Source: a virus
Strand: one strand, 5' to 3'
Virus record (IMG/VR): IMGVR_UViG_3300020185_004577
Location: 19,145-83,144 of that record
DNA length: 64,000 nt
This document shows positions 4,420-58,611 of the stretch, piece after piece; the stretch's first letter is position 1, and each line of letters opens with the position of its first letter. Both the position numbers and the translations under genes were made by a program. The notes beneath the pieces were generated by a model. That model saw only the letters and a program-made list of their open reading frames with translations. It was not told the origin of the DNA and searched no databases.

Positions 4420-5879
4420 ATCTGTAGCAACATATAGTACAGCTTTTTCTTAGGTCTTGACACTGCTACATAATGAACATTTTTTTCTTCTTGATACCCA
4501 TCCATACCAGGATAAAAAGTGTAATACTCTTTTTTATCATCTGGTATCTCTATGCCATTTCTTTTTATTAAAGATTCTGGTATTGAATTAACTACAACAC
4601 AAGTATGAAACTCTTTACCTTTGGACTTATGTATTGTGGTTACAAAGTTTTTGTTTTTTTTGTTTTCTTCTATAAAATTAATCAAATCCATAACACCCCC
4701 AGAAAAATTTTCTAAAACATAGTCTAATCGCTTACGTATTAATGGGTTTATATTTCCATTTTTTATGTCTTCAACATCTTTCTCTTTTAGGTAATTAAAG
4801 TATTTTAAAGGAACTTTTCTACTGAGTAGATTGAACTCTATTAATTTAACTATAAAATTAGTCCTTGCTAGAATTACAACCTCATCTTCATTGTTAATTA
4901 ATTCAACTAACCTATCGAAGTCTATGAATTTTTCATTTATTTCACCATCAAAAGTGTGAAAAGATTTTGCGTCTAAACTTGAAAATTCATTAGAATTTGC
5001 AATTATTTGTTTAGCGCTTCTAAAATTAGTAGTCAAACTCATTTTTTCAACCTTTCTCCTTTTTTCTAAAATGTCTTCAATAGCCATACAGTTGCTGCCG
5101 CTATATCCATATATAGATTGGTTTAAGTCGCCAACCAGATAATACTTTTTAGCATTTAACTTCATGAGTATATCCATTTGAATAGTGCTAGTGTCTTGAT
5201 ATTCATCCAGAAAAAGGTAGTCATATTTGTCTTTAAACATTTTCAACCACTTGTTTTCTTTTAGTAAGTTTCTTACATCTAGCAATATATCAGAAAAGTC
5301 TCTTTTTCTTTTTTCTCTTAAGTACTTTGAATACTGAATGTAATAATCTGGTATCCTAACTTTTATTCCATCTGCTGTTTGTAATTTATATGATGAGATT
5401 TGAGAATCTAAAAAATCAGCATCATCATAGAGGTTTGAAATAATTTTATCAAATTTCAAACTCTCTTTTTGAGACGATTTGTAACTGGGTTTATTTGTAT
5501 CTTTATACCAATCTATAAATTCATAAAAATTAGTAACCTTCTTAAACTTGCCCATTCTATGTAGCATCCAAAAACAAAATGAATGTATTGTAGTTATTTT
5601 TATATCTTTGTTGTTTACCCTCTCTTTTAACTCATCTACCGCAGCATTTGTAAAACTAAAAAATATAATCCTTTTAGGGTCTACTCCTTTTTTTAAAAGA
5701 AATTTCAACCTCTGAACACAACAGAAAGACTTACCACTTCCAGCAGTAGAGGAAACTATAACAGACTTTTTACCTTCATATAGAACAAATTGTTTTTGCT
5801 CTTCTGTTAAGCTAGATAAAATATCGTTATCTTCTTTTTCTTGAAAAGCGTCTAATTGTAATTTTGAAACCTTACTCAT
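4416..5879 (-). CDS. UvrD/Rep/PcrA SF1 helicase (compact)
   Basis: AGSGKS, FTNAA, TIHSF, DEYQD, VGDLNQSIYGY, TNFRS, TIHKSKGKEF and YVAVSR motifs. Confidence 0.93.
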   Translation of the reverse strand: MSKVSKLQLDAFQEKEDNDILSSLTEEQKQFVLYEGKKSVIVSSTAGSGKSFCCVQRLKFLLKKGVDPKRIIFFSFTNAAVDELKERVNNKDIKITTIHSFCFWMLHRMGKFKKVTNFYEFIDWYKDTNKPSYKSSQKESLKFDKIISNLYDDADFLDSQISSYKLQTADGIKVRIPDYYIQYSKYLREKRKRDFSDILLDVRNLLKENKWLKMFKDKYDYLFLDEYQDTSTIQMDILMKLNAKKYYLVGDLNQSIYGYSGSNCMAIEDILEKRRKVEKMSLTTNFRSAKQIIANSNEFSSLDAKSFHTFDGEINEKFIDFDRLVELINNEDEVVILARTNFIVKLIEFNLLSRKVPLKYFNYLKEKDVEDIKNGNINPLIRKRLDYVLENFSGGVMDLINFIEENKKNKNFVTTIHKSKGKEFHTCVVVNSIPESLIKRNGIEIPDDKKEYYTFYPGMDGYQEEKNVHYVAVSRPKKKLYYMLLQI

Positions 5880-6348
5880 TCCTAACGTTAATTATACCAC
5901 CTTTTTTATTTTTTTTACACCACAAAAGTAAAAAATCATCTGACAAACCTCTCATATTATTTTTCTCCAAAATTAAACCTCTGCCTTTTTTGAATATACA
6001 TTTACCTGTAAGGTTAATGTCTAAAAACCCCCTTAATTTTCCAACGGGGTACAATTCAACACCACCAACATTATTAGAACCGAACATCTTTGTGGACTCA
6101 TTAAAATGAAACTGATTTCCTAAAATTTCACAAATGAACATACTACTTGATATGGCTGAAACATCAGGTCTGAAATCTGTGTCAGACGATATTCTAAAAT
6201 AAAGTCTATTAATAGTTGTCATAAAAGTTCTATTCCATTCCAATCTACTAGCATAAGGAGTTATGTTTCTAGGTTGTGCAAAGTCATAAGAATACCAATT
6301 TTCTTCAAATAAAACTTTACAAATATTATTATTGTAGCTTGGGCTCAT
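5872..6348 (-). CDS. Hypothetical protein; probable degenerate fragment of a gp23-type major capsid protein
   Basis: EWNRTFMTTINRLYFRI...SSSMFICEIL...VGKLRGFLDI resembles the C-terminal half of gp23-like capsid proteins (recalled pattern, not searched). Confidence 0.5.
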   Translation of the reverse strand: MSPSYNNNICKVLFEENWYSYDFAQPRNITPYASRLEWNRTFMTTINRLYFRISSDTDFRPDVSAISSSMFICEILGNQFHFNESTKMFGSNNVGGVELYPVGKLRGFLDINLTGKCIFKKGRGLILEKNNMRGLSDDFLLLWCKKNKKGGIINVRNE

Positions 6349-7162
6349 TTTGTGTTGCTCTACTTTTCTCCATTATTTTTTCTAAAACTTTTTTTGTGTC
6401 AGTTGAAAAGTCTGACTTCATAAACCAAGTGTAATATCCTGGGTTGTGTTTTAAAACATCAGATACCGATTGGTCTTGGTATTTTCCAAAATTAAATACA
6501 GGAACATCGTTGTCGTTTAAAACAATCCTTCCAGAGTAATCTAACTGCCCTTTGAAGTTTGTAAAATCATGTAGTTTAGACATATCATTTACAATAGGTC
6601 TTTCCTCTATAGTTCCATCAGAATCTTCGTAATTAGAATCTTTGTAGTAATCCAATTGGCTTTCTAATATTTCAGCAGTAGCCCTAATATCATTCATAGC
6701 ATCATGAGCACCTTCTAAATTTTTATTACAATAAAACTTATATGCCGCCTTCAGATTTCTAGGTTCCATTTTTTGAAATATCTTCCACACGTCAATAGAG
6801 CGTCTATCATTCATGTCAAAATCAGAACCAACTCTATAGAACTCCTCTATCAACAAAGGTACATCAAATCTATTACTGTTAAAACCACACAAATCCGCAT
6901 CACCTATAAATGCTTTTATACCTTTCGATATTTGCTTAAAAGTTGGTGCATCTTTAACCATCTCATTTGTTATTCCATGAACAGCAGTAGCTTCTTCAGG
7001 GATGGGTATCATCGGATTTACCAGTCTATTTTTTTCTTCCTTTTCTCTTCCATCAGCGTAGTATTTAACAATTCCTATCTGAACTATTCTATCATTCGAA
7101 ACACTAACACCTGTTGTTTCTAAATCAAAAAATACTAAATCTTTATTTAATTTTAAATTCAT
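6329..7162 (-). CDS. DEDDh 3'-5' exonuclease (DnaQ/PolIII epsilon-like)
   Basis: FFDLETTG, FNSNRFD and HDAMND motifs; C-terminal FNFGKY...PGYYTW domain. Confidence 0.92.
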   Translation of the reverse strand: MNLKLNKDLVFFDLETTGVSVSNDRIVQIGIVKYYADGREKEEKNRLVNPMIPIPEEATAVHGITNEMVKDAPTFKQISKGIKAFIGDADLCGFNSNRFDVPLLIEEFYRVGSDFDMNDRRSIDVWKIFQKMEPRNLKAAYKFYCNKNLEGAHDAMNDIRATAEILESQLDYYKDSNYEDSDGTIEERPIVNDMSKLHDFTNFKGQLDYSGRIVLNDNDVPVFNFGKYQDQSVSDVLKHNPGYYTWFMKSDFSTDTKKVLEKIMEKSRATQNEPKLQ

Positions 7163-7166
7163 AAGT

Positions 7167-7355: not shown

Positions 7356-7359
7356 AATT

Positions 7360-8226
7360 TTAACTCAAATGTTGCTTTAATATATTACTTCTACTCCTAT
7401 GTCTCAAAACCTTTATGGCAGAATCTTTTATTTGACGAACTCTCTCTCTTGTTAATCCAAAATATTCACCCACTTCTTCGAGTGTCATCTTTGGATATCC
7501 CATTATTCCGTAATACATACAAACAACCTCTCTCTGTCTAGGCTGTATTGTTTTAAGTGTTGAAGATAAATCTTGATGTAAAGAGTCTGAGGCCACACTT
7601 ATATCCACATCATTCATCTCTCCTTCTGAAATTTTATCATACAAACTATAACCTTCATCATCAGTTGACAGAGGAGCGTCTAAAGATGCTTGAGGCTGCG
7701 AGGAACGTAATAATCTAGATATTTTCACTACATCCTCTTGCATTATTTCAGCTATCTCTTCCTCTGTAGGCTCTCTTTGATTTCTTTGTTCAAAATCTCT
7801 AGACTCTTGCTTTAACTTATAATAAGTACTGATTTGATTTGTAGGAAGCCTAACCATTCTAGAATTATTTGCCAAAGCTTCTAGTATAGATTGTCTAATC
7901 CACCATACAGCATATGATATAAATTTAAAACCCCTTGTTTGGTCAAATCTTTCGGCAGCCTTTATTAAGCCATAATTACCTTCATTTACTAAATCTTCAA
8001 AATTTATACCCTTACCCTGATATTGTTTTGCAACACTTATAACAAATCTTAAATTGCCAGTAATTAACTTTTCTCTAGACCTTATATTACCTGCTTGTGA
8101 CTCGATGGCTAACTTATGCTCTTCTTCTTCTGTTAGTTGTTTGATTTTATTTATTTCATTTAAATATGACTTTATGGAATCAGAATCTCTATTCGTTATT
8201 TTATTAGTTATTTTCAGTTGCCTCAT
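7360..8226 (-). CDS. RNA polymerase sigma factor, Bacteroidota RpoD-like (paralogue 1)
   Basis: Starts MRQLKIT. Region 2 NLRFVISVAKQY...DLVNEGNYGLIKAAERFD..RGFKFISYAVWWIRQSI; region 4 TLEEVG..FGLTRERVRQI. Confidence 0.95.
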   Translation of the reverse strand: MRQLKITNKITNRDSDSIKSYLNEINKIKQLTEEEEHKLAIESQAGNIRSREKLITGNLRFVISVAKQYQGKGINFEDLVNEGNYGLIKAAERFDQTRGFKFISYAVWWIRQSILEALANNSRMVRLPTNQISTYYKLKQESRDFEQRNQREPTEEEIAEIMQEDVVKISRLLRSSQPQASLDAPLSTDDEGYSLYDKISEGEMNDVDISVASDSLHQDLSSTLKTIQPRQREVVCMYYGIMGYPKMTLEEVGEYFGLTRERVRQIKDSAIKVLRHRSRSNILKQHLS

Positions 8227-8279
8227 TTTAAAATTTTATTTAATTAAATTAGTTCCATTGTTAGATTTTTACGATTAAA

Positions 8280-8308
8280 CAAATATAAGAATTATTTTAA
8301 AGAACAAA
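8280..8308 (-). promoter_or_regulatory. Bacteroidota-type promoter upstream of sigma paralogue 1
   Basis: TTTG-N17-TATATTTG on the minus strand. Confidence 0.6.
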
Positions 8309-8336
8309 AAAAAATACCACACAAAAGCGTGGTATT
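8306..8336 (-). terminator. Intrinsic terminator after sigma paralogue 2
   Basis: AATACCAC/GTGGTATT stem followed by a U-run on the minus strand. Confidence 0.6.
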
Positions 8337-8358
8337 AATACTTTAAAAAGACTTTATT

Positions 8359-9222
8359 TTATAGATATTTTATGAGCAAATCTTTTGTTGAAGTGTTTTC
8401 TAACAACTTTTTCTCAGCCTTTCTTGCAATTTGCCTAATCCTCTCATTGCTATACCCTAGTTTTCTAGCAATTTCCTCTTTAGAATGCGCTTGACAATCT
8501 ATGCCATAAGTGTACCTAATGACTAAAGTTTCATTGTTCGTAAGTATTTCAAATGCTCTGTACATATCTTGTTTTAAAGAATCGTCTAACAATGAAGAGT
8601 CTGGCTTGCCCAAGCTATCATCTTCTATTAAATTCACTAAAGTTGAAGAGTTTTCATCAGAACCTACTTTTGCATCTAAAGATGAATGAAAAGAACTAGC
8701 TTGCTGTAGAAGCTTACCAGATTCAGCGTCTATATCCATATATTCACAAACTTCGAATTCTGTTGGCTCTCTTTCTAAAACTTGCTGCAAGTGCTGTACG
8801 GCTCTTATATATTTCCCAGCTTCTAAATTTTTATTAGAAGGAACTTTTATCATTCTCTTCTTTTCAGATATGGCTTGTATTATAGTTTGTCTAATCCACC
8901 AAACCGCAAAAGATATAAATTTAAAACCTCTAGTTCCATCGAATCTTTCGGCAGCCTTTATGAGTCCCAAATTACCTTCATTTATCAAATCGGCTAATGG
9001 CAATCCTGTATTTTGGTATTTTTTAGCAACACTAATTACGAATTTTAAATTTGATTGAACCAATTCTTTTAAAGCCTCTTCGTCACCTTCTTGAATCAAT
9101 TTAGAAAGCTCAAATTCTCTTTCCGGGGTTATGGAATCAAATTTATTTACATCCGTAAAGTATTGTTCTATTGATTTTTCAGTTCTGTTTGTAAGGCTTT
9201 GTTGAATTTTTAATTGTCTCAT
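8359..9222 (-). CDS. RNA polymerase sigma factor, Bacteroidota RpoD-like (paralogue 2)
   Basis: Starts MRQLKIQ. NLKFVISVAKKY, EGNLGLIKAAERFD and FAVWWIRQTI are present; region 4 is diverged (SKEEIARKLGYSNERIRQI). Confidence 0.94.
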   Translation of the reverse strand: MRQLKIQQSLTNRTEKSIEQYFTDVNKFDSITPEREFELSKLIQEGDEEALKELVQSNLKFVISVAKKYQNTGLPLADLINEGNLGLIKAAERFDGTRGFKFISFAVWWIRQTIIQAISEKKRMIKVPSNKNLEAGKYIRAVQHLQQVLEREPTEFEVCEYMDIDAESGKLLQQASSFHSSLDAKVGSDENSSTLVNLIEDDSLGKPDSSLLDDSLKQDMYRAFEILTNNETLVIRYTYGIDCQAHSKEEIARKLGYSNERIRQIARKAEKKLLENTSTKDLLIKYL

Positions 9223-12158: not shown

Positions 12159-12623
12159 TCAATCAAATATTTTGTAGTAAAACTTAGGTAATAATATTTC
12201 TGAATCTGAATAATTTAATTTGTATTCGTACTTAATGAGTGCAACATCGAAGTCCATACGTTTAACTATAGCTCCAGTAGGGTCTAATAAATCAATTTTA
12301 CAAATATGAACATCTTTATATTCATCAATCCAATCATTTGATGTGATTGCTAACATTGATTCTATGGAGATAATATTACCTTGTTCAGGAGTATAATAAA
12401 AATGTAAAGATTTAATTCTGTCTGGGCTGATTGTTTTATCAGAATATTCATTTTGTAAAAAAACAACAAATCTATTTGCTTTATATGGTTCAAAAGAATT
12501 AAAAAGAGTTCCTTGAGTTAAACGATAAGATTCTGGGTTGTTTATATTATAGTATGCATAACCCGTATAAGGAGAAGATTCTTTTCTTTCAAGAATTAAC
12601 TTTCTTTTTCTCCTTTTATACAT
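12159..12623 (-). CDS. Degenerate tail-tube (gp19-like) paralogue
   Basis: FEPYKANRFVV, IDLLDPTGAIVKRMDF and LNYSDSEI resemble myovirus tail-tube motifs (recalled pattern). Confidence 0.55.
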   Translation of the reverse strand: MYKRRKRKLILERKESSPYTGYAYYNINNPESYRLTQGTLFNSFEPYKANRFVVFLQNEYSDKTISPDRIKSLHFYYTPEQGNIISIESMLAITSNDWIDEYKDVHICKIDLLDPTGAIVKRMDFDVALIKYEYKLNYSDSEILLPKFYYKIFD

Positions 12624-12625
12624 AA

Positions 12626-13270
12626 TTAAATTCTATTCTTATATTTTAATATTTTTTGCATTTTTACAGGAGTAAGAACAAGTCCATTTTTTAGTGTTAA
12701 AGAAAATTGCTTAGCAATAGCCCTTTCTATCAAATCAAAGCTTAATCTAGTATCTCCAACCAAAAACCCTCTGTCAGTAAATTTGACAATAAATGGGAAG
12801 TTTGTTTTAGTGTCAAACCTAACTATCAAATCTTTTTTTGGTACTTTTGGCATTTCCTTAGCTGGATTAGCAACTTTTTTGCTTACAACATTGAGCTCTT
12901 TTTCTTGTTCTGTCAAAGATTCGGCTGCAGATTTCTCTGCTGTTATTTTTTGATTTTCTAAATCTGTAACTCTTTGTTTGGCAGAAGATTCTAATTCTCT
13001 AGTTAAATCCAATTGGTCTTGAGTTATCTTTACCTGCGCATCAGCCATTTTTTTATAATCGGCCCCACTAGCAGAAGTTTGAACTTGTTTGTCCATTTTT
13101 AATTTTTCTGTTAGATTTTTTATGCTTTCCGTAGTTTTTTCTAAAGTATCTTTAGCCAATTCTATTGCATCTTCTAAAGTTGCAACATTGTCAACTTTTG
13201 CATCATCTTCAGACAAATACAAAGAAGCTTCTTTTAATATAAATGAATCTATATCTCTTTTGGTAAACAT
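12626..13270 (-). CDS. Hypothetical late protein, coiled-coil
   Basis: Late box at 13287-13294; N-term KRDIDSFILKEASLYLSE. Confidence 0.7.
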   Translation of the reverse strand: MFTKRDIDSFILKEASLYLSEDDAKVDNVATLEDAIELAKDTLEKTTESIKNLTEKLKMDKQVQTSASGADYKKMADAQVKITQDQLDLTRELESSAKQRVTDLENQKITAEKSAAESLTEQEKELNVVSKKVANPAKEMPKVPKKDLIVRFDTKTNFPFIVKFTDRGFLVGDTRLSFDLIERAIAKQFSLTLKNGLVLTPVKMQKILKYKNRI

Positions 13271-13306
13271 GTTGTTTTGTTTTTAATATAAATAGTTTAT
13301 AAAAGT

Positions 13307-42648: not shown

Positions 42649-42660
42649 ATTACATATTCA

Positions 42661-47536: not shown

Positions 47537-47896
47537 TTATATATTTTCGTTATTTTCATCATTTTCACCTTCATCATGTGAGCCTAACAAACTTCTTAAA
47601 CCACCTAAATCCTGACTGCTATGAACAATAAAATTAGCAGAACCACTACATCTGTCACTAATAATTTCAGAATATTTTTTTAAACCATCAGTCAAAACAT
47701 TTTTCCATTCCTTGGTCATATCTTCTTTAATTTTTTTATTGAAAAGTTCTAACAACAGAAATCTTTTATTTGAATTATTTGAAGCAGGAATAGATTTTTT
47801 TGACTTGGAAAATGGTGATACAAAGCTCTTTTTTGACATGTCCCAAAGAGAGCTTTTGTTTTTATCTTTATCATTTTCTTCTTCACTTTTCAACAT
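47537..47896 (-). CDS. Hypothetical protein; possible short major-capsid-like fragment
   Basis: KEWKNVL...SEII...GSANFIVHSS resembles the gp23 segment GxGNFIIAS. Confidence 0.45.
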   Translation of the reverse strand: MLKSEEENDKDKNKSSLWDMSKKSFVSPFSKSKKSIPASNNSNKRFLLLELFNKKIKEDMTKEWKNVLTDGLKKYSEIISDRCSGSANFIVHSSQDLGGLRSLLGSHDEGENDENNENI

Positions 47897-48324: not shown

Positions 48325-48807
48325 ATGAAAGAGAATAAGCTAATTTTAGGCTTTGGTAGCGTGAAAGAGCTGATGGATTCTGCTCTTGGATTAAAAAACT
48401 CATTTGTAAACTTCATACTTGCTGGGTGTACAGCTTTAACATCATTTATAACACAATACATATGGGATGACGCTTCTGCAGTATACTTTATGTTATTTTT
48501 AATTTTAATAGATGCAGGTACTGGTGTTTGGAAATCAATCATACGTAGAAGCTTTAGTAGTAGTAAGTTACCTAGAGTTTTTGTTATTTCAATAATATAC
48601 GTTTTAATGCTTGCAATAAGTTGGAATGCCGCAAAGCATTCAGACTTATTTGTGTGGCTACCAGGCATGGTTTATGGAGGACTAATAGGAACTCCATTAG
48701 TTTCTATATATGAAAACTTTGCAGAGTTAGGATATGTACCTAAAGGTCTTATTTATGATATTAAAGAAAAAATAAAAAATTACTTTAATAAAAAATATAA
48801 AAACTAA
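48325..48807 (+). CDS. Phage holin (holin family 4-like)
   Basis: Hydrophobic segments, LIDAGTGVWKS...SSSKL and LVSIYENFAELG; late box at 48284-48291. Confidence 0.82.
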   Translation: MKENKLILGFGSVKELMDSALGLKNSFVNFILAGCTALTSFITQYIWDDASAVYFMLFLILIDAGTGVWKSIIRRSFSSSKLPRVFVISIIYVLMLAISWNAAKHSDLFVWLPGMVYGGLIGTPLVSIYENFAELGYVPKGLIYDIKEKIKNYFNKKYKN

Positions 48808-51800
48808 TATACTCTTCTGAATTGACATCCATCTTGAAATTTTAACCAGTTTCTATCTTTAGAAAACTTGGTCAAATATATACCCCCTTTTTCTACTAAA
48901 TCTTTTATTCTGTCATAAGCATCCGACCAAACTACCATTTTTACAGAAGTGCCCCCATCGCTAAGTTCAAGTGACCAATATTTTTTATTATTTTTAGAAA
49001 TTTTTTCTAAAACGTCTTTTATTACAAAATAATAATATTTATTTGGGTTGTCAAAAGAAGTTACTGCTTCAATAGTAAAATCGTACTCTTCTTTAAATTG
49101 TTGTTTTATTTTAGATATTTTATTAAACAGTTGTAAGTCCAAAATACAAACATCCATAAAATCCTTATACTTTACATCCTTAGGGGTTGGCTCAAACTTT
49201 TCCTTAAGACTTTCTTCTATAATGTCAAATCTATTTTGTCCAAACAAATCCATTTGCATAGTATTACTTTTTATTTTGAACTTACGAAATTCCATCAACT
49301 CGTCTCTAGAGTCTGACCAATCGTCAAAAACTCCAGCCTTTAAACATGCTTCAAAATTTGCCTTATTAAATTTAGAAAACTTATGCATAAAAAATTTATC
49401 CTTACCCACATTGGCAATGTCTACCTTTTGTAACTCCTCATAAGCAATCTCTCCCATTCCATTTATACTAGAGAAGCCCATTAAAATAGTTTCTTCGTCT
49501 AACATGCCCCACTCCCAGCTTGACTTCCTATTAGGAGGTAAAACCTTAATCCCTTTAGTGAATGCACCCATTATAGCAGAAGACAACCATGATTCATCAT
49601 CTTTAGCATGATTGAGCAATGCGGTATAAAATTCTGTAGGATAGTACCTTTTCATGAATAATGTTTGCATAGCCACATAACTATAACTTACTGAATGTGA
49701 GCGATTAAAAGAGTATCCTAAATACTTTACCAACCACTCTTCTATATCTTTGACTTCATTTTCTTTAAGACCTTTTTCCTTACATCCTGACTTGAACTTT
49801 TCCCAAAGCACTAAATATTCCTTATAATTCTTGTTGTTATATTCTTTTTCTTCTAACACATCTCCAGATAAGTTTTTCTTTATGATTTTAGAAGCTTTAT
49901 CCATTACCTTTCTTAAATTATCGCCTTCTCCCAAAGTCATTCCAGCCAACTCATGTGCTATAAACATTAATTGCTCTTGAAATATAAGTACACCATTAGT
50001 GTTTCTAAGTAAAGGTTCTAGAGAAGGATGTACTAAACTTATCTCTTCTGGATTTTTCTTATTTCTAATATATTCTTCATGAGCACCCACACCCATAGGG
50101 CCAGGTCTATATAGAGCATTTGCGGCAACCATTTCCTCAAAGCTTTCTATATGCATTCTCTTTATAAGTTTGGACATACCATCAGATTCAAACTGAAATA
50201 CACCCTGATTGTTTCCGCTTCTAATTTCTTCGAATAAATCTGAATTATCTAAATCAACATATTTTACCTGCTCAGAAACATCTATGCCCCTATTTTCTTT
50301 AACTAACTTTATGGCCTCTTTAAGTATGTTTAGTGTGGTTAAGTTCAATCTGTCCAACTTTAATATTCCTAAATCAGACAAATCTTTACCACTGCCAGAT
50401 TCTTGAAAACCAGAAACAGTTACTCCTTTTACCATATTTACAGGCATATACTCCCAAACAGGACCAGGTGTTATAACTATACCAGCCGCATGTTTACCTA
50501 GGTTCCTAACTTGACCTTGTAGTGTTAGGGTTGTCTCTATTGTCTTTTTATTATTGGGATTTTCTATCCATTTTTTAACTAAATCAGATGCTTCTGGTGT
50601 GTTTGGGTGCTGTTCTAGCCAATCTTTTAAATCACCATCATATTTCATAAACATTTTAGGCATCTCTTTTGTAACAGCGAATATTTCAGAATCAAAACCA
50701 GCATCTCCTCCAAAAGCTTTAACAACATCTTTTATACATCCTTTCTCATTAAATGTGGAAAATGTTATAACTGGGAAAACGCATTCCTTTCCATATTTGT
50801 TATACAAAAACTCATCAGTCTTTACATCTGAACCAGTCTCAAAGTCTATGTCAATATCGGGAGGCGAGTTTCTGGCTGGGTTCAAGAATCTCTCAAAATA
50901 TAAATCAAATCTTAATGGGTCAATTTTAGTTATGTCTAAACACCAAGATAAAAGACTTCCTGCAGCACTACCTCTGCCTGGGCCAACTTCTATATCATTG
51001 TCAGCACAAAATCTTATCAACTCCCAAACCACAAGAAAATAATCTAACATTTTCTTTTCTTTTATGACGCCTAATTCATAGTCTAACCTCTCTCTATATT
51101 GAACCACTTTGTCATCATCTATTTCAATTGGCCCACGCTTCCTATATATGTTAAGCTTTTGATTGAGCTTAGCATGTGACAATCTTCTTATAATCTCTTC
51201 TCCATCATTGGTCTTAAAAAAATCGTAAACATCTTTTGTGGGCTTATAATTAGGATATTTCTCTACGTCTGTTTCAAATTCAAAATTACATATAGAAGCA
51301 ATTTTTTCACTTGTAATCATACACATTTTCAAAAATTCTTCACTATAATTAAACTCATAATCTTTATTAATTTCTAATAGCTGTACTTCGTCAACATAGT
51401 ACATATCTCTACTATCTTTAGTTCTAGCTTTTTTTATAGACCTTTTTTGGTTTATTGAAATCAAAACATCTTGAAGTACTTTGTCTTTTTTTTCTGGGTA
51501 ATATATATCATTAGAAACTATTATGGCCATGCTATACTTGTCAGACATGTTTATTATAAAATCATTATAATTCCTTTGTATTTCATTGTCTTCTAAAGAT
51601 ATTTCAGCTATATAAGATTTTTTACCAAATACATTTAACATGTTTACTAAATAATCTTCCGCCTCTTTGTATTTGCCCATTTGTAAATACTTTGATATAG
51701 TTCCATTTTTAGATGATGTTGTCAATATTAGACCCTCTTTATTCTCTAGAATCCATGAAGTTTTTATTCTAGGAACTCTATAAAAACCTTCTGCAAATGA

Positions 51801-52787
51801 TAAGTAATTTATTTTGTTAATATTAACAAAACCTTCTTTGTTTGTGACAATTATTTTTTGAAGAACATTTTTGTCTTGTTGCTTAGGCTCATAATCACCA
51901 CCTATACTATCATTTAAATGAAATTCACAACCTATTATTGGTTTTATATCTTTTGATTTACATTTTTGATAAAAAGAAAAAGCACCAGACAAGCTACCCT
52001 TATCTGTTAAAACTAAAGATTTATGATTGTATTTTTTGGCTAAATTAATGTAGTCAGAAGTAGAACCAGCACCCTCTAAAACAGAGTGATAAGTATGAAC
52101 CCCAAAATTAACCATAGAAAAATCTTTATCAAATTCTCCATTTTTCATTTTCCACTTATGAATCATGTTTTTTTCAGAATTTTCTGAAAAAATATAATTT
52201 CTAAAATCTTCACCAAAACCTAATGCACCAATTCTTCTAAGTTCAAAGAAACATCTAGCTAGAGCTTCCACATCAACTAAAGCGTCATGTGCGTCTTCGA
52301 ATGTTTTGTTAAAAAGCTTTTTGTGTAACTCGGTAAGAGTTGGAGGCTTTAACCCCATCTTACCTTGTATTCTGCAAAAATCTATAGTAGAATTCATAGT
52401 ACAAACATTAACTATGTCTCTCATTGAGTTTTTCATTTTTAATCTAAAAAACTCAGAGGCCGTGACTTTATTGTCAAAGCTGATGTTGTGAGCAACTATA
52501 AAGCTAGAATTTTCTATATCTTTAGAAAAAGCCTGCAAAACCTCTCTTATAGGCTGTCCTTCCCTATTGGCTCTATCGTTAGTTATCCTATGAATTCTAA
52601 TACTTTCATCAGGTATAACAAAACCATCTGGTTTTACTATCCTATTATTAGAGCCTATAACCTTTCCATTTATGTCATAAACCTTCCATGCTAACTGCAC
52701 TATCCTAGGCCAGTTGTCAGTGTCGCTAATAGGTGCACTAAAATCTTCAGGCAACCCAGTTGTTTCTGTGTCAAATACTATAAACAT
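48804..52787 (-). CDS. dnaE: DNA polymerase III alpha subunit with N-terminal DEDDh exonuclease
   Basis: N-term VFDTETTG/AHNISFD/HDALVD; PHP domain; GRGSAAGSL, PPDIDIDF, KHAAG, GVFQFES and YSFNRSH. Start set at the ATG at 52787 because the track's TTG start lies inside the -7 promoter box. Confidence 0.95.
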   Translation of the reverse strand: MFIVFDTETTGLPEDFSAPISDTDNWPRIVQLAWKVYDINGKVIGSNNRIVKPDGFVIPDESIRIHRITNDRANREGQPIREVLQAFSKDIENSSFIVAHNISFDNKVTASEFFRLKMKNSMRDIVNVCTMNSTIDFCRIQGKMGLKPPTLTELHKKLFNKTFEDAHDALVDVEALARCFFELRRIGALGFGEDFRNYIFSENSEKNMIHKWKMKNGEFDKDFSMVNFGVHTYHSVLEGAGSTSDYINLAKKYNHKSLVLTDKGSLSGAFSFYQKCKSKDIKPIIGCEFHLNDSIGGDYEPKQQDKNVLQKIIVTNKEGFVNINKINYLSFAEGFYRVPRIKTSWILENKEGLILTTSSKNGTISKYLQMGKYKEAEDYLVNMLNVFGKKSYIAEISLEDNEIQRNYNDFIINMSDKYSMAIIVSNDIYYPEKKDKVLQDVLISINQKRSIKKARTKDSRDMYYVDEVQLLEINKDYEFNYSEEFLKMCMITSEKIASICNFEFETDVEKYPNYKPTKDVYDFFKTNDGEEIIRRLSHAKLNQKLNIYRKRGPIEIDDDKVVQYRERLDYELGVIKEKKMLDYFLVVWELIRFCADNDIEVGPGRGSAAGSLLSWCLDITKIDPLRFDLYFERFLNPARNSPPDIDIDFETGSDVKTDEFLYNKYGKECVFPVITFSTFNEKGCIKDVVKAFGGDAGFDSEIFAVTKEMPKMFMKYDGDLKDWLEQHPNTPEASDLVKKWIENPNNKKTIETTLTLQGQVRNLGKHAAGIVITPGPVWEYMPVNMVKGVTVSGFQESGSGKDLSDLGILKLDRLNLTTLNILKEAIKLVKENRGIDVSEQVKYVDLDNSDLFEEIRSGNNQGVFQFESDGMSKLIKRMHIESFEEMVAANALYRPGPMGVGAHEEYIRNKKNPEEISLVHPSLEPLLRNTNGVLIFQEQLMFIAHELAGMTLGEGDNLRKVMDKASKIIKKNLSGDVLEEKEYNNKNYKEYLVLWEKFKSGCKEKGLKENEVKDIEEWLVKYLGYSFNRSHSVSYSYVAMQTLFMKRYYPTEFYTALLNHAKDDESWLSSAIMGAFTKGIKVLPPNRKSSWEWGMLDEETILMGFSSINGMGEIAYEELQKVDIANVGKDKFFMHKFSKFNKANFEACLKAGVFDDWSDSRDELMEFRKFKIKSNTMQMDLFGQNRFDIIEESLKEKFEPTPKDVKYKDFMDVCILDLQLFNKISKIKQQFKEEYDFTIEAVTSFDNPNKYYYFVIKDVLEKISKNNKKYWSLELSDGGTSVKMVVWSDAYDRIKDLVEKGGIYLTKFSKDRNWLKFQDGCQFRRVY

Positions 52788-52793
52788 ATGATA

Positions 52794-52824
52794 CAAATAT
52801 AATAATTATAATTTTTCAGTACAA
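52794..52824 (-). promoter_or_regulatory. Bacteroidota-type promoter of dnaE
   Basis: TTG-N20-TATATTTG. Confidence 0.68.
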
Positions 52825-53768: not shown

Positions 53769-55598
53769 TTAATCATTAGAACCAACACTATTTCCTTCAT
53801 TAAGCAAGTCGTTTCCATCACTATCTAAACCTGTTTGTTCATTTATATTATTTAATTTAGCAGTTATTGAATCCATTAATGTCTTTGTTTTTGTATTCAA
53901 ACTTTTATTTTTTTTATTTAAAATATCTGACTTATCAACATCACTAACAGCATCATCTATAGCATCAACTCTTATGACATTATTTTCTTGCTCTAAAAAT
54001 AAAAAATTCTCCTCCAATGGCTCATCACCAGCGGGCTCGTCCACCTCAGGTTCAGAGCCAGACATGTCGTCACCAGTATCGGTGGATGATGGTGCTGATG
54101 CGCCTTCACCATCTGGTGATTCTTTAAATTTGTCATCTATATCAGAAAAAATACCAGTTTGCATATATTCCTCTGGTGCCGTCTCTATTTCAGAGAACAT
54201 TTTTTTCTCTACTTTTTTCTGTCTTAATATTTGTTTTATTTCCGCTTTAGAGAATCCCATAACAAACTCCATTGCCCAAGTATAAGAAACTGGTGATGTA
54301 GGCTCTGCTGTATACATTTCCTTAAAAACTTCAAGCCTTGCTTTCATTGTCTCCAATTTTAAAAGCTCTTGCTGAGTTGATGGATTTGTTAACTTTAAGT
54401 CAAAATTATCCATGTCATCTTCAAAGCCTAACAAAAACAAATGAACGTTTGCAATTCTTCTAAGCTCAATTATAACATTTTCTTGTATTCTGTTTATAGT
54501 TCTACTAAACCTTAAATCAGCTTGAGATAAGGCTGAACCACCAGGCATTGATTCTGCATAATTAAGGTAAGGCTTAGGAACTTTTAATGCTGCAAAAAGC
54601 TTATTTTGTAAATATTCAACATCTTGTATTTCTCCCAAATTTGAAGCACCAGGTAAAGTTTCTATCCTAGAAGATTTGTCTCCTCTAATGGGTAAAAAAT
54701 AATCCTCCTCCATAGTTAAAGGATTATACTTTAAATTCATTTGTCCTGTCTTCTGGTCTACAATAGGAGATTTTTTTAACTCTCTTTTAATTCTCTCAAC
54801 ATATTGTTGCACGTCAGCAGACTCTAAATTACCAACCTCAATATAGTGAACCCTTCTTTCTGGAGCTCTAATAATTCTATAAACTAACATAGCATCTTCT
54901 GCCAACTGAAGTTGTTTCCACAATTTTCTAGCTGGGTCTAACACACTCCTTCCGTATGGTAATTTGGTACCATCAGAAACTAATCTAAAATGAGCTATTT
55001 GAAACTCTTCGAAATACATATTATTAATATCCCACTTAAATCTAGAAGAGTTTACATTACCGTCAAAAGCTTCTTCTCTATGAATTTCTGCAACTGGCAA
55101 CATTCTGACATCATAAATACCTTCTTGTTGGTCTATTTCCAACTTAGCAAAAGCGTCTCCAAACTTAATCATCTCTCTAATCCAAAATGTTAAGTTATAT
55201 TCTATGTTTAATCTGCCGTGAAACAAATCTTTTAATACTGTTTTTATTCTATCATTTTCTGAATATATTGACAATATATCACCCCTCTCGTCTCTGGTTA
55301 CAGTTTCATCAGTTATAATATCTAATGCGGCAGACACCTCTGGAGACATGTCCATTGCTCTGTAGTCATTATATGCGCCAAGTCTGTCCGTGTCGTAATA
55401 TACACTTCTAGAGTATATATCTTGAGCAATCTTTTGAGACTGAACGTCCAAAAAGTCTTGTTGCCTTTGTTGTACTGGTGTTGACTGTGGACTAGAAATG
55501 TTTCCAGAAATAACTTGCTTCTCTTGAGGCAATGGTCTGGAGGTTCTTCCTCTCTTCAATCTATCCAGTAGATTTATAAATACACTTTCTTCTGCCAT
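53769..55598 (-). CDS. Portal protein, T4 gp20-like
   Basis: PEVSAALDII, LAEDAMLVYRIIRAPERRV, EEDYFLP.RG, IETLPGASNLGEIQDVEY and ALKVPK. Confidence 0.95.
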   Translation of the reverse strand: MAEESVFINLLDRLKRGRTSRPLPQEKQVISGNISSPQSTPVQQRQQDFLDVQSQKIAQDIYSRSVYYDTDRLGAYNDYRAMDMSPEVSAALDIITDETVTRDERGDILSIYSENDRIKTVLKDLFHGRLNIEYNLTFWIREMIKFGDAFAKLEIDQQEGIYDVRMLPVAEIHREEAFDGNVNSSRFKWDINNMYFEEFQIAHFRLVSDGTKLPYGRSVLDPARKLWKQLQLAEDAMLVYRIIRAPERRVHYIEVGNLESADVQQYVERIKRELKKSPIVDQKTGQMNLKYNPLTMEEDYFLPIRGDKSSRIETLPGASNLGEIQDVEYLQNKLFAALKVPKPYLNYAESMPGGSALSQADLRFSRTINRIQENVIIELRRIANVHLFLLGFEDDMDNFDLKLTNPSTQQELLKLETMKARLEVFKEMYTAEPTSPVSYTWAMEFVMGFSKAEIKQILRQKKVEKKMFSEIETAPEEYMQTGIFSDIDDKFKESPDGEGASAPSSTDTGDDMSGSEPEVDEPAGDEPLEENFLFLEQENNVIRVDAIDDAVSDVDKSDILNKKNKSLNTKTKTLMDSITAKLNNINEQTGLDSDGNDLLNEGNSVGSND

Positions 55599-55607: not shown

Positions 55608-56303
55608 TTAATAAATATTAAGTTTTTCTTTTTTAAGCTCTGTAGAAGGTTTTTTATAACACCTTAAACTAACCGAATGAGGTATTCGACCATTAACTGT
55701 ACTTACATTTAGAGCATCTTTTTTTTCTATAAGTAAATCTTTTTTATAAAATTCTAAAGCATTATTTAATTTAAAGTGAAAATTTTCAAAATTTAAATCA
55801 CTTATTCCTCCAAGTGAAGATATACATATTAACTTTCCTTTGCTTGTTAATGCTTGTGATGCATAAGTCAATATATGTTCTAAATTTTTATGATAAGCAG
55901 CTTCATCTATAATGATAACATCAAACTTAGCCCCTCTTAACTTGTAGTAATCTTGTATAACCTTAAAATAAGCACCTTCTAAATACAAATCTTTTCTATT
56001 AACTCTTAAATTATTTTCATAATAACCTCTCAATAAAAATCCTAATTTTTTTAAAAAATTTTCTGAAGTATCGCTATCAAAACTAAAATAAGCTATACTT
56101 TTTTTATCATTTGAAAGTTTCATTAATGAAGCTACATAATACAAAATAACAGTAGTTATGCCTGCCTGTCTTGGTTTAATTACAGAAACTACATCACTAT
56201 TTATAATCGCATTTAGAATTGATTTTTGATTTAAATCAAAAACAGACTTTAAGTGATTTTTCTGACTCAAACAATCTTTTATTTTATTTAATATACTTGT
56301 CAT
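55608..56303 (-). CDS. Truncated terminase-ATPase paralogue (no nuclease domain)
   Basis: IKPRQAGITT (compare LKSRQMGLS in TerL), LRG, IIIDEAAY and ICISS; only 231 aa. Confidence 0.78.
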   Translation of the reverse strand: MTSILNKIKDCLSQKNHLKSVFDLNQKSILNAIINSDVVSVIKPRQAGITTVILYYVASLMKLSNDKKSIAYFSFDSDTSENFLKKLGFLLRGYYENNLRVNRKDLYLEGAYFKVIQDYYKLRGAKFDVIIIDEAAYHKNLEHILTYASQALTSKGKLICISSLGGISDLNFENFHFKLNNALEFYKKDLLIEKKDALNVSTVNGRIPHSVSLRCYKKPSTELKKEKLNIY

Positions 56304-56343
56304 TTTATGACAATAAAAGACTTTTTTTAAAAAAGTAAATAGA

Positions 56344-58005
56344 TTATACTTTTATTGGCCCATAAAGCCAAGAAGTATCATTAAAATCATCATCATCATC
56401 CCAATTTTCTTTTGTTGAACCATCTAAACTTAAAGAGCTAACATCTTTTTGACTAAAACTTATCATATCTAACATTTCTTTAGTCTTCTTCTTGTTCCAA
56501 AATACAGACTCAAACTCCGTATCTCTAATTAACAAAGCAATAGCAAGACCAAATATTAAGTCATCATTAAATCCATTTTCATGCTCAGCTTTATCTCCTT
56601 TATATATGAATGTTTCAAATTCAATGAGTAATCTTGGAGAATTTATTTTAATTTCCATCTCTCTCATGTACTTAACTAGAGAGCTCATAAGTAATGGTCT
56701 AGTTTTTACAGTAGTCTGAAACCCTGGTACGTCTGTATCTTTATCAACAACATAGTTATGAGTTCTGTTGTATAGTTTAACTGCAGATTTAGATATATAC
56801 ATTCTATCTTTTGGATATTTTAAAGTATTTTTTAGCATCAAAGTTGTTGCCAAACCAAAACTGTTGCACTCTACAGCCATAAATGCGTTATTATAATCGC
56901 TTCCAACCTTATAAAGTAGTTCCGCAAATACATCAGGAACTATTTTTCCTTGGTACTCTGCAACTTGTTCCAAACTATCAGCGTCTATTACTTGAACGGT
57001 AGAGTAATCGGCACCATCTCCCCTTCCAACATCAGCTCCTATTATATAATTGCCATCTTCTTTTGGTTTTTTCCACACATGAAAAGATGTTACATAATCA
57101 CAAAATCTATTATCATTCTTCTTAAAATCGTAGTAACATATAGGTTTTTTATCACCTATATCTTTTACATATTTTTGTATTATTGAATTATCTATAACAA
57201 CAGCGGTTGAACCTTCAAATGACAAATCTAGCTCTTGTGCTATTTTAATTGTGTTATGATGCATCCTTTGGCACTCACCTTCGTACCAAGGACTCCATGG
57301 ATATTCTTTTCCATCAGAATCTACACGAGTCTCTAAACCCTTAGATAATATAGGGTGTATAGACCAGTGAAGTTTAATTGGATTAAAGTTTCCCTTACCC
57401 TTATTTGCCTGAGTCCAAGTTTGATGATATAAGTTACCAGTACCTTTTGGTGTAGAAATCATAATACACTTACCTTGTGTTGCAGCTAAAGCCAATCCAG
57501 CACCCATCCATATATCTTGAGCATGTTCAATAAATGCAGTTTCATCTAATATTAAGCAAGTTAAAGACTCCCCTCTACCAGCTTGCTTGCTACTAGCCAC
57601 AGCCTTAACCCATGAACCATTTGAAAATGCTATTTGTTTAGTGTTGTTGATTAACCTTTCTTCTGGCAACATCCAATCGGGTAGTCTGTCCAAAAATTGT
57701 CTAACTGTATTTAAAAACCTAACCGCACCATTTCCGTTGTCGGCAACTACCAATATTCTTTCATCAGGACAGAAGACTAATCTCCAAGCAACATATAGCG
57801 CAGATATAACAGAAAGCCCCATCTGTCTAGATTTTAACACTATTGAATTTTGGTTATCATTAAATTGATTTAAACACATTTCTTGATATGGAAAACATGT
57901 CATTTTTCCAATTTGCTGTTTTTCCATGTCAAAAACATAACCATATGAGTTAGCAAAATGTACAGGGCTTTTTACGCAATTAACGTATTCTTCAATATAA
58001 TTCAT
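56344..58005 (-). CDS. Terminase large subunit, T4 gp17-like
   Basis: PYQ, KSRQMGLS, GRG, ILDETAF, ISTPKG; nuclease GADVGRGDGADYS, VECN and NDDL; late box at 58021-58028. Confidence 0.95.
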   Translation of the reverse strand: MNYIEEYVNCVKSPVHFANSYGYVFDMEKQQIGKMTCFPYQEMCLNQFNDNQNSIVLKSRQMGLSVISALYVAWRLVFCPDERILVVADNGNGAVRFLNTVRQFLDRLPDWMLPEERLINNTKQIAFSNGSWVKAVASSKQAGRGESLTCLILDETAFIEHAQDIWMGAGLALAATQGKCIMISTPKGTGNLYHQTWTQANKGKGNFNPIKLHWSIHPILSKGLETRVDSDGKEYPWSPWYEGECQRMHHNTIKIAQELDLSFEGSTAVVIDNSIIQKYVKDIGDKKPICYYDFKKNDNRFCDYVTSFHVWKKPKEDGNYIIGADVGRGDGADYSTVQVIDADSLEQVAEYQGKIVPDVFAELLYKVGSDYNNAFMAVECNSFGLATTLMLKNTLKYPKDRMYISKSAVKLYNRTHNYVVDKDTDVPGFQTTVKTRPLLMSSLVKYMREMEIKINSPRLLIEFETFIYKGDKAEHENGFNDDLIFGLAIALLIRDTEFESVFWNKKKTKEMLDMISFSQKDVSSLSLDGSTKENWDDDDDFNDTSWLYGPIKV

Positions 58006-58071
58006 AATAACACTTATTATTATAAATACTAAGTAATTATTAAAATACTACAGAGGCCCTGAAACGTATTT

Positions 58072-58611
58072 TTAATCCATAATTCCAGAGGTTGTGTTAG
58101 ATAAATTTTTTATTGTTCTAGGCTCTAATGTTACAGATAGTTGTTTTTTAACATTTTTATTTCTGTAATAGAATATGGGACTTCTTGGTATGCAAGATAT
58201 TAAATTTATTTTTACTCTTTTTTTAAAACTTTTATTTATAGCATAAACATGTATATCTTTGGCTTTTTTATTAAAAATGTTTTGTTCGTAATACTTGTTT
58301 TTTTTATTATAAAAACCATATATCCAATCACTTATTTCAGAACCATCTGTAGAGCCATTATTGCTAATAATATGAAATTTATAACTGTACTCTTTATATA
58401 TTTCTGGAATATATGATGAATTTATTAAACGATTATAATCTATTGCAATCGCTAAAACTTGACTATTTGTATTAGAATATGGTTCAAAATCAATAATAAC
58501 ATAATTTTCCCATAAAATATCCATTGTTGAATCAAATTTTTCAACTAATAAGTTGCTTGTTGTATATAAGTCTTTATATAAAGGAAGAAAAGATAAACTT
58601 GAATATGCCAT
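58072..58611 (-). CDS. Hypothetical protein; possible degenerate tail-tube-like paralogue
   Basis: DWIYGFYN...KDIHVYAIN...KINLISCIP...LSVTL matches the tube-fold layout (recalled pattern). Confidence 0.4.
   Translation of the reverse strand: MAYSSLSFLPLYKDLYTTSNLLVEKFDSTMDILWENYVIIDFEPYSNTNSQVLAIAIDYNRLINSSYIPEIYKEYSYKFHIISNNGSTDGSEISDWIYGFYNKKNKYYEQNIFNKKAKDIHVYAINKSFKKRVKINLISCIPRSPIFYYRNKNVKKQLSVTLEPRTIKNLSNTTSGIMD

Follow-up and report, generated by a model that had tools for sequence, protein, structure and literature searches.

The stretch of DNA analysed here (64,000 nt, hereafter the window) represents about one quarter of the genome of a huge phage of marine origin whose core is of T4 type, and raises the question of what five short genes that resemble parts of virion and packaging proteins are doing in it. 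In capsid, tube, portal and terminase proteins, bacterial immunity recognises folds that are conserved, and an earlier, sequence-only reading had taken the five ORFs to be damaged, truncated copies of such proteins that might act as decoys. On re-examination of the window all five were found at the coordinates listed in Table 1 with intact reading frames, and the dN/dS comparison across relatives that the earlier reading had called for gave values <1 for every ORF. The genes are also intact in marine metagenomes of independent studies. Database searches returned little: ORF1-4 had no match in PHROG or Pfam, PDB sequence-profile searches with the families of ORF1, ORF3 and ORF4 gave zero matches at E 10, and a phage collection searched in near and protein mode yielded no match. 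BLASTP among ORF1-4 found no mutual paralogy, and neither did hhalign between ORF1 and ORF2. Our reading is that all five are real, selected genes derived from, or containing pieces of, the phage's own virion and packaging proteins, and that they divide into two classes, ORF3 on one side and ORF1, ORF2, ORF4 and ORF5 on the other.

Table 1. Positions in the window of the five ORFs and of the neighbouring genes that bear on their interpretation.
Feature	Position	Strand	Remarks
ORF1, 158 aa, accessory	5872..6348	-	Between helicase and DnaQ-like exonuclease genes, overlaps both
ORF3, 154 aa, predicted tail-tube/Hcp fold (core residues 51-154)	12159..12623	-	Second gene of a late-box operon
214-aa gene	12626..13270	-	Heads the ORF3 operon; late box at 13287-13294
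ORF2, 119 aa	47537..47896	-	Conserved N-terminal half, fast-evolving C-terminal half
Portal protein, 609 aa	53769..55598	-	phrog_213, E 7e-73
ORF5, 231 aa, ATPase-only TerL paralogue	55608..56303	-	Between terL and the portal gene
TerL, full-length, 553 aa, ATPase + nuclease; parent of ORF5	56344..58005	-
ORF4, 179 aa, probable full-length, diverged tail tube paralogue	58072..58611	-	Directly upstream of terL
Conserved 105-aa gene	58651..58968	-	Heads the unit containing ORF4; late box at 58972-58979

The relationship to a parent protein is closest for ORF5, where the proposal of a terminase ATPase lacking its nuclease domain was strongly corroborated. The protein matches the adjoining full-length TerL (BLASTP, E 7e-8) and phrog_2 (E 9e-8), its family aligns with TerL in hhalign (probability 98%, E 2.8e-14), and it was the sole non-self match (E 4e-9) when a TerL N-domain HMM was run over 958 frames. 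Alignment is confined to TerL residues 8-208, so that ORF5 is not a complete TerL, having no C-terminal RNase H-fold nuclease domain, and family members are 215-240 aa throughout. The elements of a terminase ATPase domain (Terminase_6N / ASCE P-loop), namely an adenine-binding Q, a Walker A-type K-x-R-Q-x-G-x-[ST], a Walker B hhhhDE with the catalytic Glu and a C (coupling) motif, are present in ORF5 in alignment with TerL. Among 22 family members, with identity down to 26%, residues Q26, K43, R45, Q46, G48, E134, S162 and G166 do not vary, and conservation of D133 is at least 90%. With its nucleotide-binding motifs intact, ORF5 does not fit the description 'damaged'. ATP binding is probably retained, and hydrolysis may be as well. 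ORF5 scores below the Pfam PF03237 (Terminase_6N) cut-off (17 bits, E 0.0049, against the curated 22 bits), and a precomputed PF03237 match exists for a few of its relatives.

A stand-alone protein of similar size occurs in another T4-type phage, T4 itself: vs.8 (NP_049732, 219 aa) is likewise homologous to the TerL ATPase domain, keeps the Walker A and B motifs and lacks a nuclease domain (PMC13601566). Direct similarity between the two is without significance (BLASTP E 5.5; hhalign E 0.015, in the Walker B region only), ORF5 is nearer to its own TerL than to vs.8, and in T4 a long distance separates vs.8 from gene 17, unlike ORF5, which is placed between terL and the portal gene. The terL gene has a TATTTATA box at 58021-58028, and a box-like TATTTATT (55610-55617), 11 nt ahead of the portal ATG, is overlapped by the final codons of ORF5. 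The earlier statement that none of the five ORFs has its own late box is correct in that no TATTTATA lies directly upstream of any of them, but ORF3, ORF4 and ORF5 sit inside box-driven units. Relative to its flanks, ORF5 is unusually divergent in one relative (72% nucleotide identity against 96% for the flanks, L002) and unusually similar in another (96% against 86%, L003). The ORF5 alleles are exchanged by recombination, and the gene is an accessory allele cassette. Among the joints in contigs from four studies, none that deleted ORF4 or ORF5 was well supported, the short side being <30 letters in all.

The capsid likeness of ORF1 and ORF2 is supported, at the level of sequence, for a local segment only. 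Both match the major capsid protein (MCP) at about residues 333-406 (hhalign): ORF1 residues ~8-57 (possibly to 126) resemble MCP 333-385 (possibly to 459), and ORF2 residues 61-103 resemble the helix-strand-helix element of the MCP A-domain (MCP 363-406). The scores (36.0 for ORF1, 42.7 for ORF2) exceed the shuffle maxima of 26.0 and 20.1, respectively, and among 80 real proteins ORF1 ranks second and ORF2 first against MCP. When the two family profiles were run against the complete 519-kb genome of a relative (G005) with HMMER, the MCP gene was the only match of each; the reverse search, an MCP profile against the single sequences, was without significance (E 0.23 and 2.9). PF07068 had no match over the contig, even at E 10, and MCP segment 386-428 also draws ORF5 weakly (E 0.065).

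Like gp23 and gp24 (PF07068), ORF1 and ORF2 would have the A-domain helix, the GxAN-beta-strand and the short helix, but they are far smaller than the 519-aa MCP, and the likeness spans only ~45-115 residues. A complete gp23 HK97 fold has an N-arm or E-loop equivalent, a P-domain with spine helix, and an A-domain; in ORF1 and ORF2 only MCP 333-406 (possibly to 459) is matched, and because the P-domain, spine helix, I-domain and N-arm are missing they are not shell subunits. They also differ from gp24, which is a full-length paralogue of gp23. The element concerned in T4 gp23 contains the gp24-bypass sites N381 and A387 and lies at the intracapsomer interface (PMC9546572). The MCP segment matched by ORF1 and ORF2 maps onto this A-domain interface helix with N381 and A387. 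The AF2 model of ORF1 has a pLDDT of 40. We know of no previous description of small proteins with an isolated MCP A-domain interface element. The ORF1 family comprises at least 15 clusters, whose lengths all fall within 155-162 aa; numerous W, C, G and P positions in it are invariant, and its dN/dS is 0.42. In ORF2 omega is 0.15 for the N-terminal half and 1.37 for the MCP-like C-terminal half, the latter value coming from 59 codons, and an ANxFIV motif is kept in a homologue only 30% identical (L012). Both genes are placed in replication operons and without a late box, in agreement with the sequence-only reading.

ORF3 and ORF4 are of full tube size, and cannot be called truncated. That ORF4 is a tube paralogue is moderately supported by profile comparison. 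In hhalign with a 13-sequence profile, ORF4 residues 19-168 aligned to residues 3-156 of 159 of the real tube protein (probability 53%, E 1.4e-4, score 33), a score reached in 0 of 150 shuffles (12.1 +/- 2.3, maximum 20). This likeness was detected profile-to-profile only; with a 7-sequence profile it was weak, the observed score being reached in 3 of 120 shuffles. The ORF4 profile also aligned with ORF3. No protein of the window matched PF06841 (Phage_T4_gp19), ORF3 and ORF4 both missing its cut-off of 28.2 bits, and relatives of ORF4 reached only 13-16 bits. A short repeated motif is common to ORF4 and an OmpA-family, CarboxypepD_reg-containing protein (P0057), and with this motif shared the tube fold of ORF4 is no more than putative. 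An Atlas search with ORF4 returned only unnamed clusters, below 0.9. What ORF4 has in common with T4 gp19 is its full-length alignment to the lineage's real gp19-like tube; unlike gp19, ORF4 is dispensable, and it neighbours terL and not the gene for the real tube, found off this contig. It co-occurs with ORF5 and is accessory. Its position suggested a small terminase subunit, and this was rejected, as close relatives have no such gene, and terL there directly adjoins the 105-aa gene.

ORF3 belongs to the conserved core genes; its late operon has a late box, and both synteny and operon are kept. It starts 2 nt after the 214-aa gene, a pair kept in G002 and G005, and its dN/dS is 0.14. Its predicted structure is a beta-sandwich with a flanking helix that matches solved tube proteins, i.e., the tail tube/Hcp fold seen in T4 gp19 and gp48/gp54, Afp1/5/7 and Hcp; against the tube profile the match was weak (observed score reached in 2 of 120 shuffles). 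It differs from gp19 in an extra 50-residue N-terminus, which is basic and disordered, and its basic N-terminal peptide is invariant. ORF3 is most likely an ordinary structural part, a minor tube or baseplate-tube junction component, with a role most likely comparable to that of gp48/gp54 or Afp5/Afp7. As a core gene whose late operon is likewise conserved, and with this dN/dS, it falls outside any accessory or decoy set. The homology proposed in the earlier reading holds, strongly for ORF5, moderately for ORF4 and over one local segment for ORF1 and ORF2, while its grouping of all five into one set fails at ORF3.

The other four genes have a different distribution. In one clade (L008/G002) the sites of ORF1, ORF4 and ORF5 are cleanly empty and ORF2 is reduced to an N-terminal version of 61 aa, and the relatives without ORF1, ORF4 and ORF5 still have a 90% identical TerL. 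As this clade is nested among gene-bearing lineages, the absences are losses, the correlated loss being that of one lineage (n = 1). Searches of the complete genome of G005 detected the parent genes but no copy of any of the four. Their dN/dS values of 0.2-0.8 compare with 0.02-0.09 for TerL, portal and PolC, and they evolve ~3-20x faster than core genes, although dS is saturated in several comparisons. Selection on them is relaxed but purifying; for ORF4 dN/dS is 0.20-0.26 and frames are intact down to 37% identity. Pseudogene decay of ORF1, ORF3, ORF4 and ORF5 was rejected on dN/dS and frame conservation. The lineage is full of mobile insertions, e.g., split PolC genes. We read the four as accessory genes, dispensable and quick to evolve, that have been inserted among core genes which are themselves conserved. 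Their accessory distribution and fast evolution, together with the swapping of ORF5 alleles and the omega of the MCP-like half of ORF2, fit a conflict role.

The explanation we favour, with confidence that is neither high nor low, is that ORF1, ORF2, ORF4 and ORF5 are accessory paralogues that act on the partners of their parent proteins. ORF5 would be the TerL ATPase domain alone, with active-site residues retained; ORF4 would be a paralogue of the tube over its whole length; and ORF1 and ORF2 would each be a small protein with the helix-strand-short-helix element of the MCP A-domain from the intracapsomer interface. Since in each case the parent's interaction surface appears to be kept and its full function not, each would most likely occupy a partner of its parent, by competitive or dominant-negative-type mimicry. 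Candidate partners are host factors, including immune sensors, or the assembly and packaging machinery of the phage itself or of a competitor. Against this, fast evolution and loss are also compatible with relaxed constraint on redundant paralogues, the fold model of ORF1 is poor, and the MCP likeness is short and the loss a single event.

Another proposal, which we think somewhat unlikely, is that each of the five is an ordinary part of the virion or of its assembly. Under it, and with the same reserve, ORF3 and ORF4 would encode minor parts of the tube or baseplate, ORF5 would assist TerL and portal as an auxiliary ATPase in packaging or as a regulator, and ORF1 and ORF2 would be MCP-binding assembly factors or chaperones. 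The location of ORF4 and ORF5 in late-box units adjoining terL and portal, the conserved late operon of ORF3 and the catalytic residues of ORF5, which are strictly conserved, are in line with this; several tube-fold paralogues are normal in contractile-tail machines, according to the structure match lists, and T4 keeps the analogous vs.8 (PMC13601566). It accounts poorly for relatives that cleanly lack ORF1, ORF4 and ORF5 and have a truncated ORF2 along with a 90% identical TerL, for a complete 519-kb genome in which no homologue of the four was detected, for the position of ORF1 and ORF2 in replication operons, and for dN/dS values several-fold above those of structural genes.

The decoy system of the sequence-only reading, in which the accessory paralogues bind host pattern-recognition sensors without activating them and compete with the true triggers, we regard as improbable. 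The targets proposed, each with little likelihood, are Avs2/3/Upx for TerL, Avs7/8/10 or CapRel/Lit for MCP and DSR2/Avs16 for the tube. The accessory, fast-evolving and allele-swapped nature of the genes suits such a role, as does the NAD-salvage operon also present in the phage, and what has been copied corresponds to what sensors recognise, namely the ATPase domain of TerL (PMC13601566) and, in the A-domain of MCP, the capsomer interface (PMC13581612). The ATP-site residues kept in ORF5 would be required for Avs2-type recognition (PMC13601566). The mechanism has a precedent in DSAD1, which occupies the trigger site on the tail-tube sensor DSR2 competitively and without activating it, although the part of the account available to us gives no indication of homology between DSAD1 and a tube protein (PMC11087589). 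However, for activation of EcAvs2 and Upx the ATPase domain of TerL is sufficient, and vs.8, the analogous ATPase-only protein, is toxic together with EcAvs2, of which it is a trigger (PMC13601566); Avs proteins are generally activated by truncated core folds (PMC13581612). A mimic is thus no less likely to trigger a sensor than to block it. Decoys would also need to out-compete MCP and tube, both of them produced in great abundance, ORF3 belongs to the core genes, ORF3-5 share late-box units with real structural genes, and the catalogued anti-Avs proteins that were found (DNA ligase, DprA/Smf-like) are not trigger homologues (10.1101/2025.06.06.658234). A decoy role is rather doubtful. There is equally a slim chance that ORF1, ORF2, ORF4 and ORF5 mimic triggers as a coordinated set, displaying the surfaces of MCP, tube and TerL by which sensors recognise them and so blocking or titrating receptors, and that the set was gained once in this lineage and lost together when unneeded.

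Very improbable, finally, is that ORF1, ORF2 and ORF4 are relics of partial duplication or recombination drifting to loss, or that their MCP and tube likeness is coincidental: the MCP-like half of ORF2 is near-neutral and deleted in the L008 clade, mobile insertions abound in the lineage, and the similarities are short, weak in one-directional HMM searches and in part shared by ORF5 (MCP 386-428), but against this stand the uniform length, invariant residues and dN/dS of the ORF1 family, the constraint and intact frames of ORF4, the persistence of ANxFIV in the distant ORF2 homologue, and scores never reached by the shuffle or real-protein nulls.

If the accessory paralogues did prove to be decoys, they would be the first anti-defence strategy made from copies of the triggers themselves; if they are minor structural parts, they would show huge phages expanding their virion gene families by duplication. 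ORF5 provides, beside T4 vs.8, a second and independent case of an ATPase-only TerL paralogue. With its dispensable, rapidly diversifying copies of surfaces that sensors read, the lineage offers a testable system in which such proteins may be decoys, extra triggers or assembly regulators.

The five short open reading frames ORF1 to ORF5 (Table) are present exactly as the sequence-only reading had placed them; its treatment of them as one set of degenerate virion-protein copies does not hold, as ORF3 looks like an ordinary conserved structural protein with a tube fold and the other four are dispensable accessory genes. An all-against-all BLASTP search of the 80 proteins of the contig revealed only one paralogy among the five, between ORF5 and the terminase large subunit (TerL); the capsid- and tube-type resemblances are invisible to BLASTP and were assessed by profiles and structure. 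The same search paired two sigma factors (40% identity), two phrog_150 'baseplate hub' proteins (36% identity), and a stand-alone DnaQ-like exonuclease with the N-terminus of PolC (28% identity), and gene duplication seems to be common in this genome.

The contig is a single viral sequence of 83,144 bp (the window is its bases 19145-83144) without a terminal repeat, with a completeness of 26% (CheckV), a G+C content of about 30% and almost all genes on the minus strand. It encodes a PolC-type polymerase, RecD- and UvrD-like helicases, DnaB, a RecA/UvsX-like protein, RNR, two sigma factors, an NAD-salvage operon, Hsp20, large tail/baseplate proteins and a terL-portal block. The NAD-salvage operon has three genes, for a PRPP-synthetase-like protein, for Nampt, and for a protein in which DnaA domain IV (Bac_DnaA_C) is joined to a cytidylyltransferase-like (NMNAT-type) domain. 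No similar phage was found in the isolate-phage collection searched. Relatives in IMG/VR are contigs of 125-675 kb, including G005, which is complete at 518,809 bp and has direct terminal repeats, and about ten studies of marine and estuary metagenomes contain the same phage. [quoted passage not shown] In the related loci L004 (15239-20798) and L014 the PolC gene is split, with a 366-aa ORF, resembling a plus-strand gene of the window, between two 741-aa halves, and in L006 and L008 it is in pieces of 702 and 757 aa (e.g., L008:14003-18506), which suggests insertion of a homing-endonuclease, intron or intein type in an essential gene.

Table. Positions of features in the window and dN/dS values; dS is saturated in more distant pairs.
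Feature	Position	Strand	dN/dS
ORF1	5872-6348	minus	0.42
ORF2, whole gene	47537-47896	minus	0.21-0.81
ORF2, N-terminal half			0.15
ORF2, MCP-like half			1.37 (against L002; estimate from 59 codons)
ORF3	12159-12623	minus	0.14
ORF4	58072-58611	minus	0.20-0.26
ORF5	55608-56303	minus	0.28-0.55
TerL	56344-58005		0.02-0.09 (range for TerL, portal and PolC)
Portal	53769-55598		as TerL
PolC			as TerL
105-aa gene	58651-58968
214-aa gene	12626-13270
Spacer before ORF4	58612-58650
Spacer before ORF5	56304-56343
Exact TATTTATA in portal ORF	55575-55582
NAD-salvage operon	370-3933
Gene resembling 366-aa ORF	43660-44127	plus
Regions of other paralogue pairs	7360-9222; 41659-43563; 6329-7162 vs 48804-52796

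ORF5 aligns with residues 8-208 of the adjacent TerL (24% identity, E 7e-8, BLASTP), and matches phrog_2 at 9e-8 and AAA_14 and Terminase_6N weakly. Its family profile matches TerL with a probability of 98% (E 2.8e-14), and a TerL N-domain HMM had ORF5 as its sole other match in 958 frames (E 4e-9). The family is narrow, with about 25 clusters, every one of 215-240 aa. In the 22 members compared, whose identity falls as low as 26%, the invariant positions coincide exactly with the adenine-binding Q, K-x-RQ-x-G, the catalytic Glu and the C-motif. As judged from sequence, these alignments and invariant residues identify ORF5 as an ATPase-only TerL paralogue with a preserved active site; the TerL likeness noted earlier stands, and the description as a damaged copy is contradicted by the invariant motifs. 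ORF5 shares 72% nucleotide identity with L002, where the flanks share 96%, and 96% with L003, where the flanks share 86%, and its alleles have therefore been exchanged by recombination via the conserved flanks. There is a precedent in T4 vs.8, an ATPase-only TerL relative with Walker A and B motifs (PMC13601566), which is analogous to ORF5 but not a demonstrated orthologue. Among distant huge-phage relatives, TerL is about 913 aa, with ~350 extra residues, in L020, L025 and L026, and separate ATPase-sized TerL-like ORFs of ~285-300 aa occur in L040, L042, L053 and L070; inteins or split terminases may account for them.

Against a 71-sequence MCP alignment, the family profile of ORF2 matched at residues 61-103 (MCP 363-406; probability 82%, E 1e-5, score 42.7) and that of ORF1 with a probability of 46% (E 2e-4, score 36.0), its core, ORF1 37-53 against MCP 365-381, lying on a collinear path to MCP 343-459. 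Column shuffles scored 13.8 ± 2.3 (maximum 20.1) for ORF2 and 15.6 ± 2.8 (maximum 26.0) for ORF1, and none of 150 reached the observed value in either case. When the MCP profile was run against all 80 contig proteins as single sequences, ORF2 ranked first and ORF1 second, and in HMMER searches of the complete 519-kb G005 each family profile had a single match, inside the MCP gene (residues 333-384, E 9e-4, for ORF1; about 363-406, E 5.6e-3, for ORF2). The reverse search, with an MCP HMM over 958 frames, placed ORF1 first and ORF2 fifth, with non-significant E-values. By these nulls, ranks and G005 matches the sequence similarity to the MCP is real but short, so that the earlier label of capsid-like proteins is retained for this segment and does not extend beyond it; outside the shared element, ORF1 and ORF2 have no similarity to each other. 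In the alignment to T4 gp23 the segment falls at gp23 ~345-390, with N381 and A387 correctly placed, residues of a short A-domain helix at the interface of neighbouring capsomer subunits (PMC9546572).

ORF3 has close relatives only. The core of its AF2 model is residues 51-154 (pLDDT ~77), and the PDB proteins returned by Foldseek were nearly all of the tube, Hcp or CIS-tube kind (best E 1.5e-3), including tube-fold proteins of both tubes and baseplates from several contractile machines. T4 and AFP each have several tube-fold paralogues, and gp48/gp54 and Afp5/7 are precedents for extra ones. The neighbourhood (p573, p61, p214, ORF3, p88, Hsp20) is the same in G002, a relative of 232 kb that is 88% complete, and in the complete G005, and the dN/dS of ORF3 is similar to that of its neighbours. 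Residues 1-12 form an invariant basic peptide, M-x-KRRKRKLI-x-E, followed by a stretch of ~40 residues with predicted disorder. Its L-I-L-E is similar to the (L/I)-x-E cleavage/targeting motif of T4 prohead protease substrates, and a capsid-targeting-like tag on a tube-fold protein would be odd.

For ORF4, no more than 11 representative clusters came out of an exhaustive HMM search. In hhalign, a 13-sequence alignment matched ORF4 19-168 to residues 3-156 of the 159 of the real tube (probability 53%, E 1.4e-4, score 33.0), with control E-values of at least 0.08 and 150 column shuffles scoring 12.1 ± 2.3 (maximum 20.0). A second match of ORF4 is to the ORF3 family (score 26.8, shuffle maximum 21.0), and relatives of ORF4 have sub-threshold PF06841 matches over the same profile region. 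A candidate rival to the tube match is a ~45-aa repeated motif common to ORF4 and P0057, a 1309-aa OmpA-family protein, where it overlaps a CarboxypepD_reg domain. P0057, from the representative library, has five copies of a G...SEFIDxI.SFY..K.K.Y motif, ~175 aa apart, which is also found in ORF4.

The late box TATTTATA occurs in sense orientation in 13 copies on the gene strand, ten of them in short gaps between genes, 11-38 nt ahead of a start codon; terL, the 105-aa gene, the 214-aa gene and tail/baseplate genes are among those so preceded. As had been noted, the five ORFs all lack a box of their own, and ORF1 and ORF2 lie, boxless, in strings of replication genes. The other three fall within boxed units, ORF3 starting 2 nt after the 214-aa gene, ORF4 following the 105-aa gene and ORF5 following terL. 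Within its 3' end ORF5 carries a box-like TATTTATT, 11 nt ahead of the portal ATG. The first codons of the portal ORF themselves contain an exact TATTTATA, and the portal may have a second promoter or another start further downstream. The spacers before ORF4 and ORF5 both contain a TTTACTTTTT(T)AA motif, the ORF5-side copy of which is retained at the L008 empty site; the motif may have a regulatory role or be a landmark of recombination.

In one clade (L006-L009/L013, including G002), with TerL 90% identical, no gene separates the 105-aa gene from terL or terL from the portal gene. The 95-nt terL-portal spacer corresponds to the spacer between terL and ORF5 in the window together with the final ~45 nt of ORF5, making it a clean empty site and explaining the invariant ORF5 C-terminus. 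In the same clade the helicase abuts the exonuclease where the window has ORF1, and ORF2 has shrunk to a 61-aa N-terminal version. In G005, the family profiles of ORF1, ORF2, ORF4 and ORF5 matched only the parent genes, terL and MCP. In a TerL tree the G002 clade branches between two clades that have ORF4 and ORF5, (L011, L012) and the crown clade, which makes the empty sites losses, the joint loss counting as a single event. ORF1, ORF2, ORF4 and ORF5 are dispensable paralogue-derived genes inserted between core genes, and they bear an evolutionary signature usual in conflict genes.

Each of the four would keep an interaction surface of its parent and not the rest: the ATP-bound ATPase core of TerL in ORF5, the tube protomer in ORF4 and the A-domain interface element of the MCP in ORF1 and ORF2. 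Competitive occupation by each paralogue of the partner of its parent protein would therefore be the most economical mechanism, and the partner could be a host sensor or the phage's own packaging or assembly machinery; this general reading as mimics or accessory paralogues stands at about an even chance. Some role around packaging is favoured by the strict conservation of the ORF5 active site and by the placement of ORF4 and ORF5 in late units. Ordinary structural or assembly roles are unlikely. The putative decoy system of the sequence-only reading, with a host immune sensor as the partner, is decidedly doubtful. The copied regions do match those read by sensors, the ATPase domain by Avs2 and Upx (PMC13601566) and the MCP A-domain capsomer interface by Avs7, Avs8 and Avs10 (PMC13581612), and DSAD1 provides a case of competitive blocking at a trigger site (PMC11087589). 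However, isolated ATPase domains activate EcAvs2 and Upx, and vs.8 is toxic with EcAvs2 (PMC13601566), so that a mimic may equally be a liability, driven to diversify or be lost. That the copies are relics, or their resemblances chance, is very improbable, with the capsid matches above every shuffle.

To our knowledge, small proteins with an isolated MCP A-domain interface element have not been described before, and we know of no earlier case in which all four such accessory genes are absent or truncated in one nested clade. The finding is of moderate interest, which would rise sharply if the decoy function were true.
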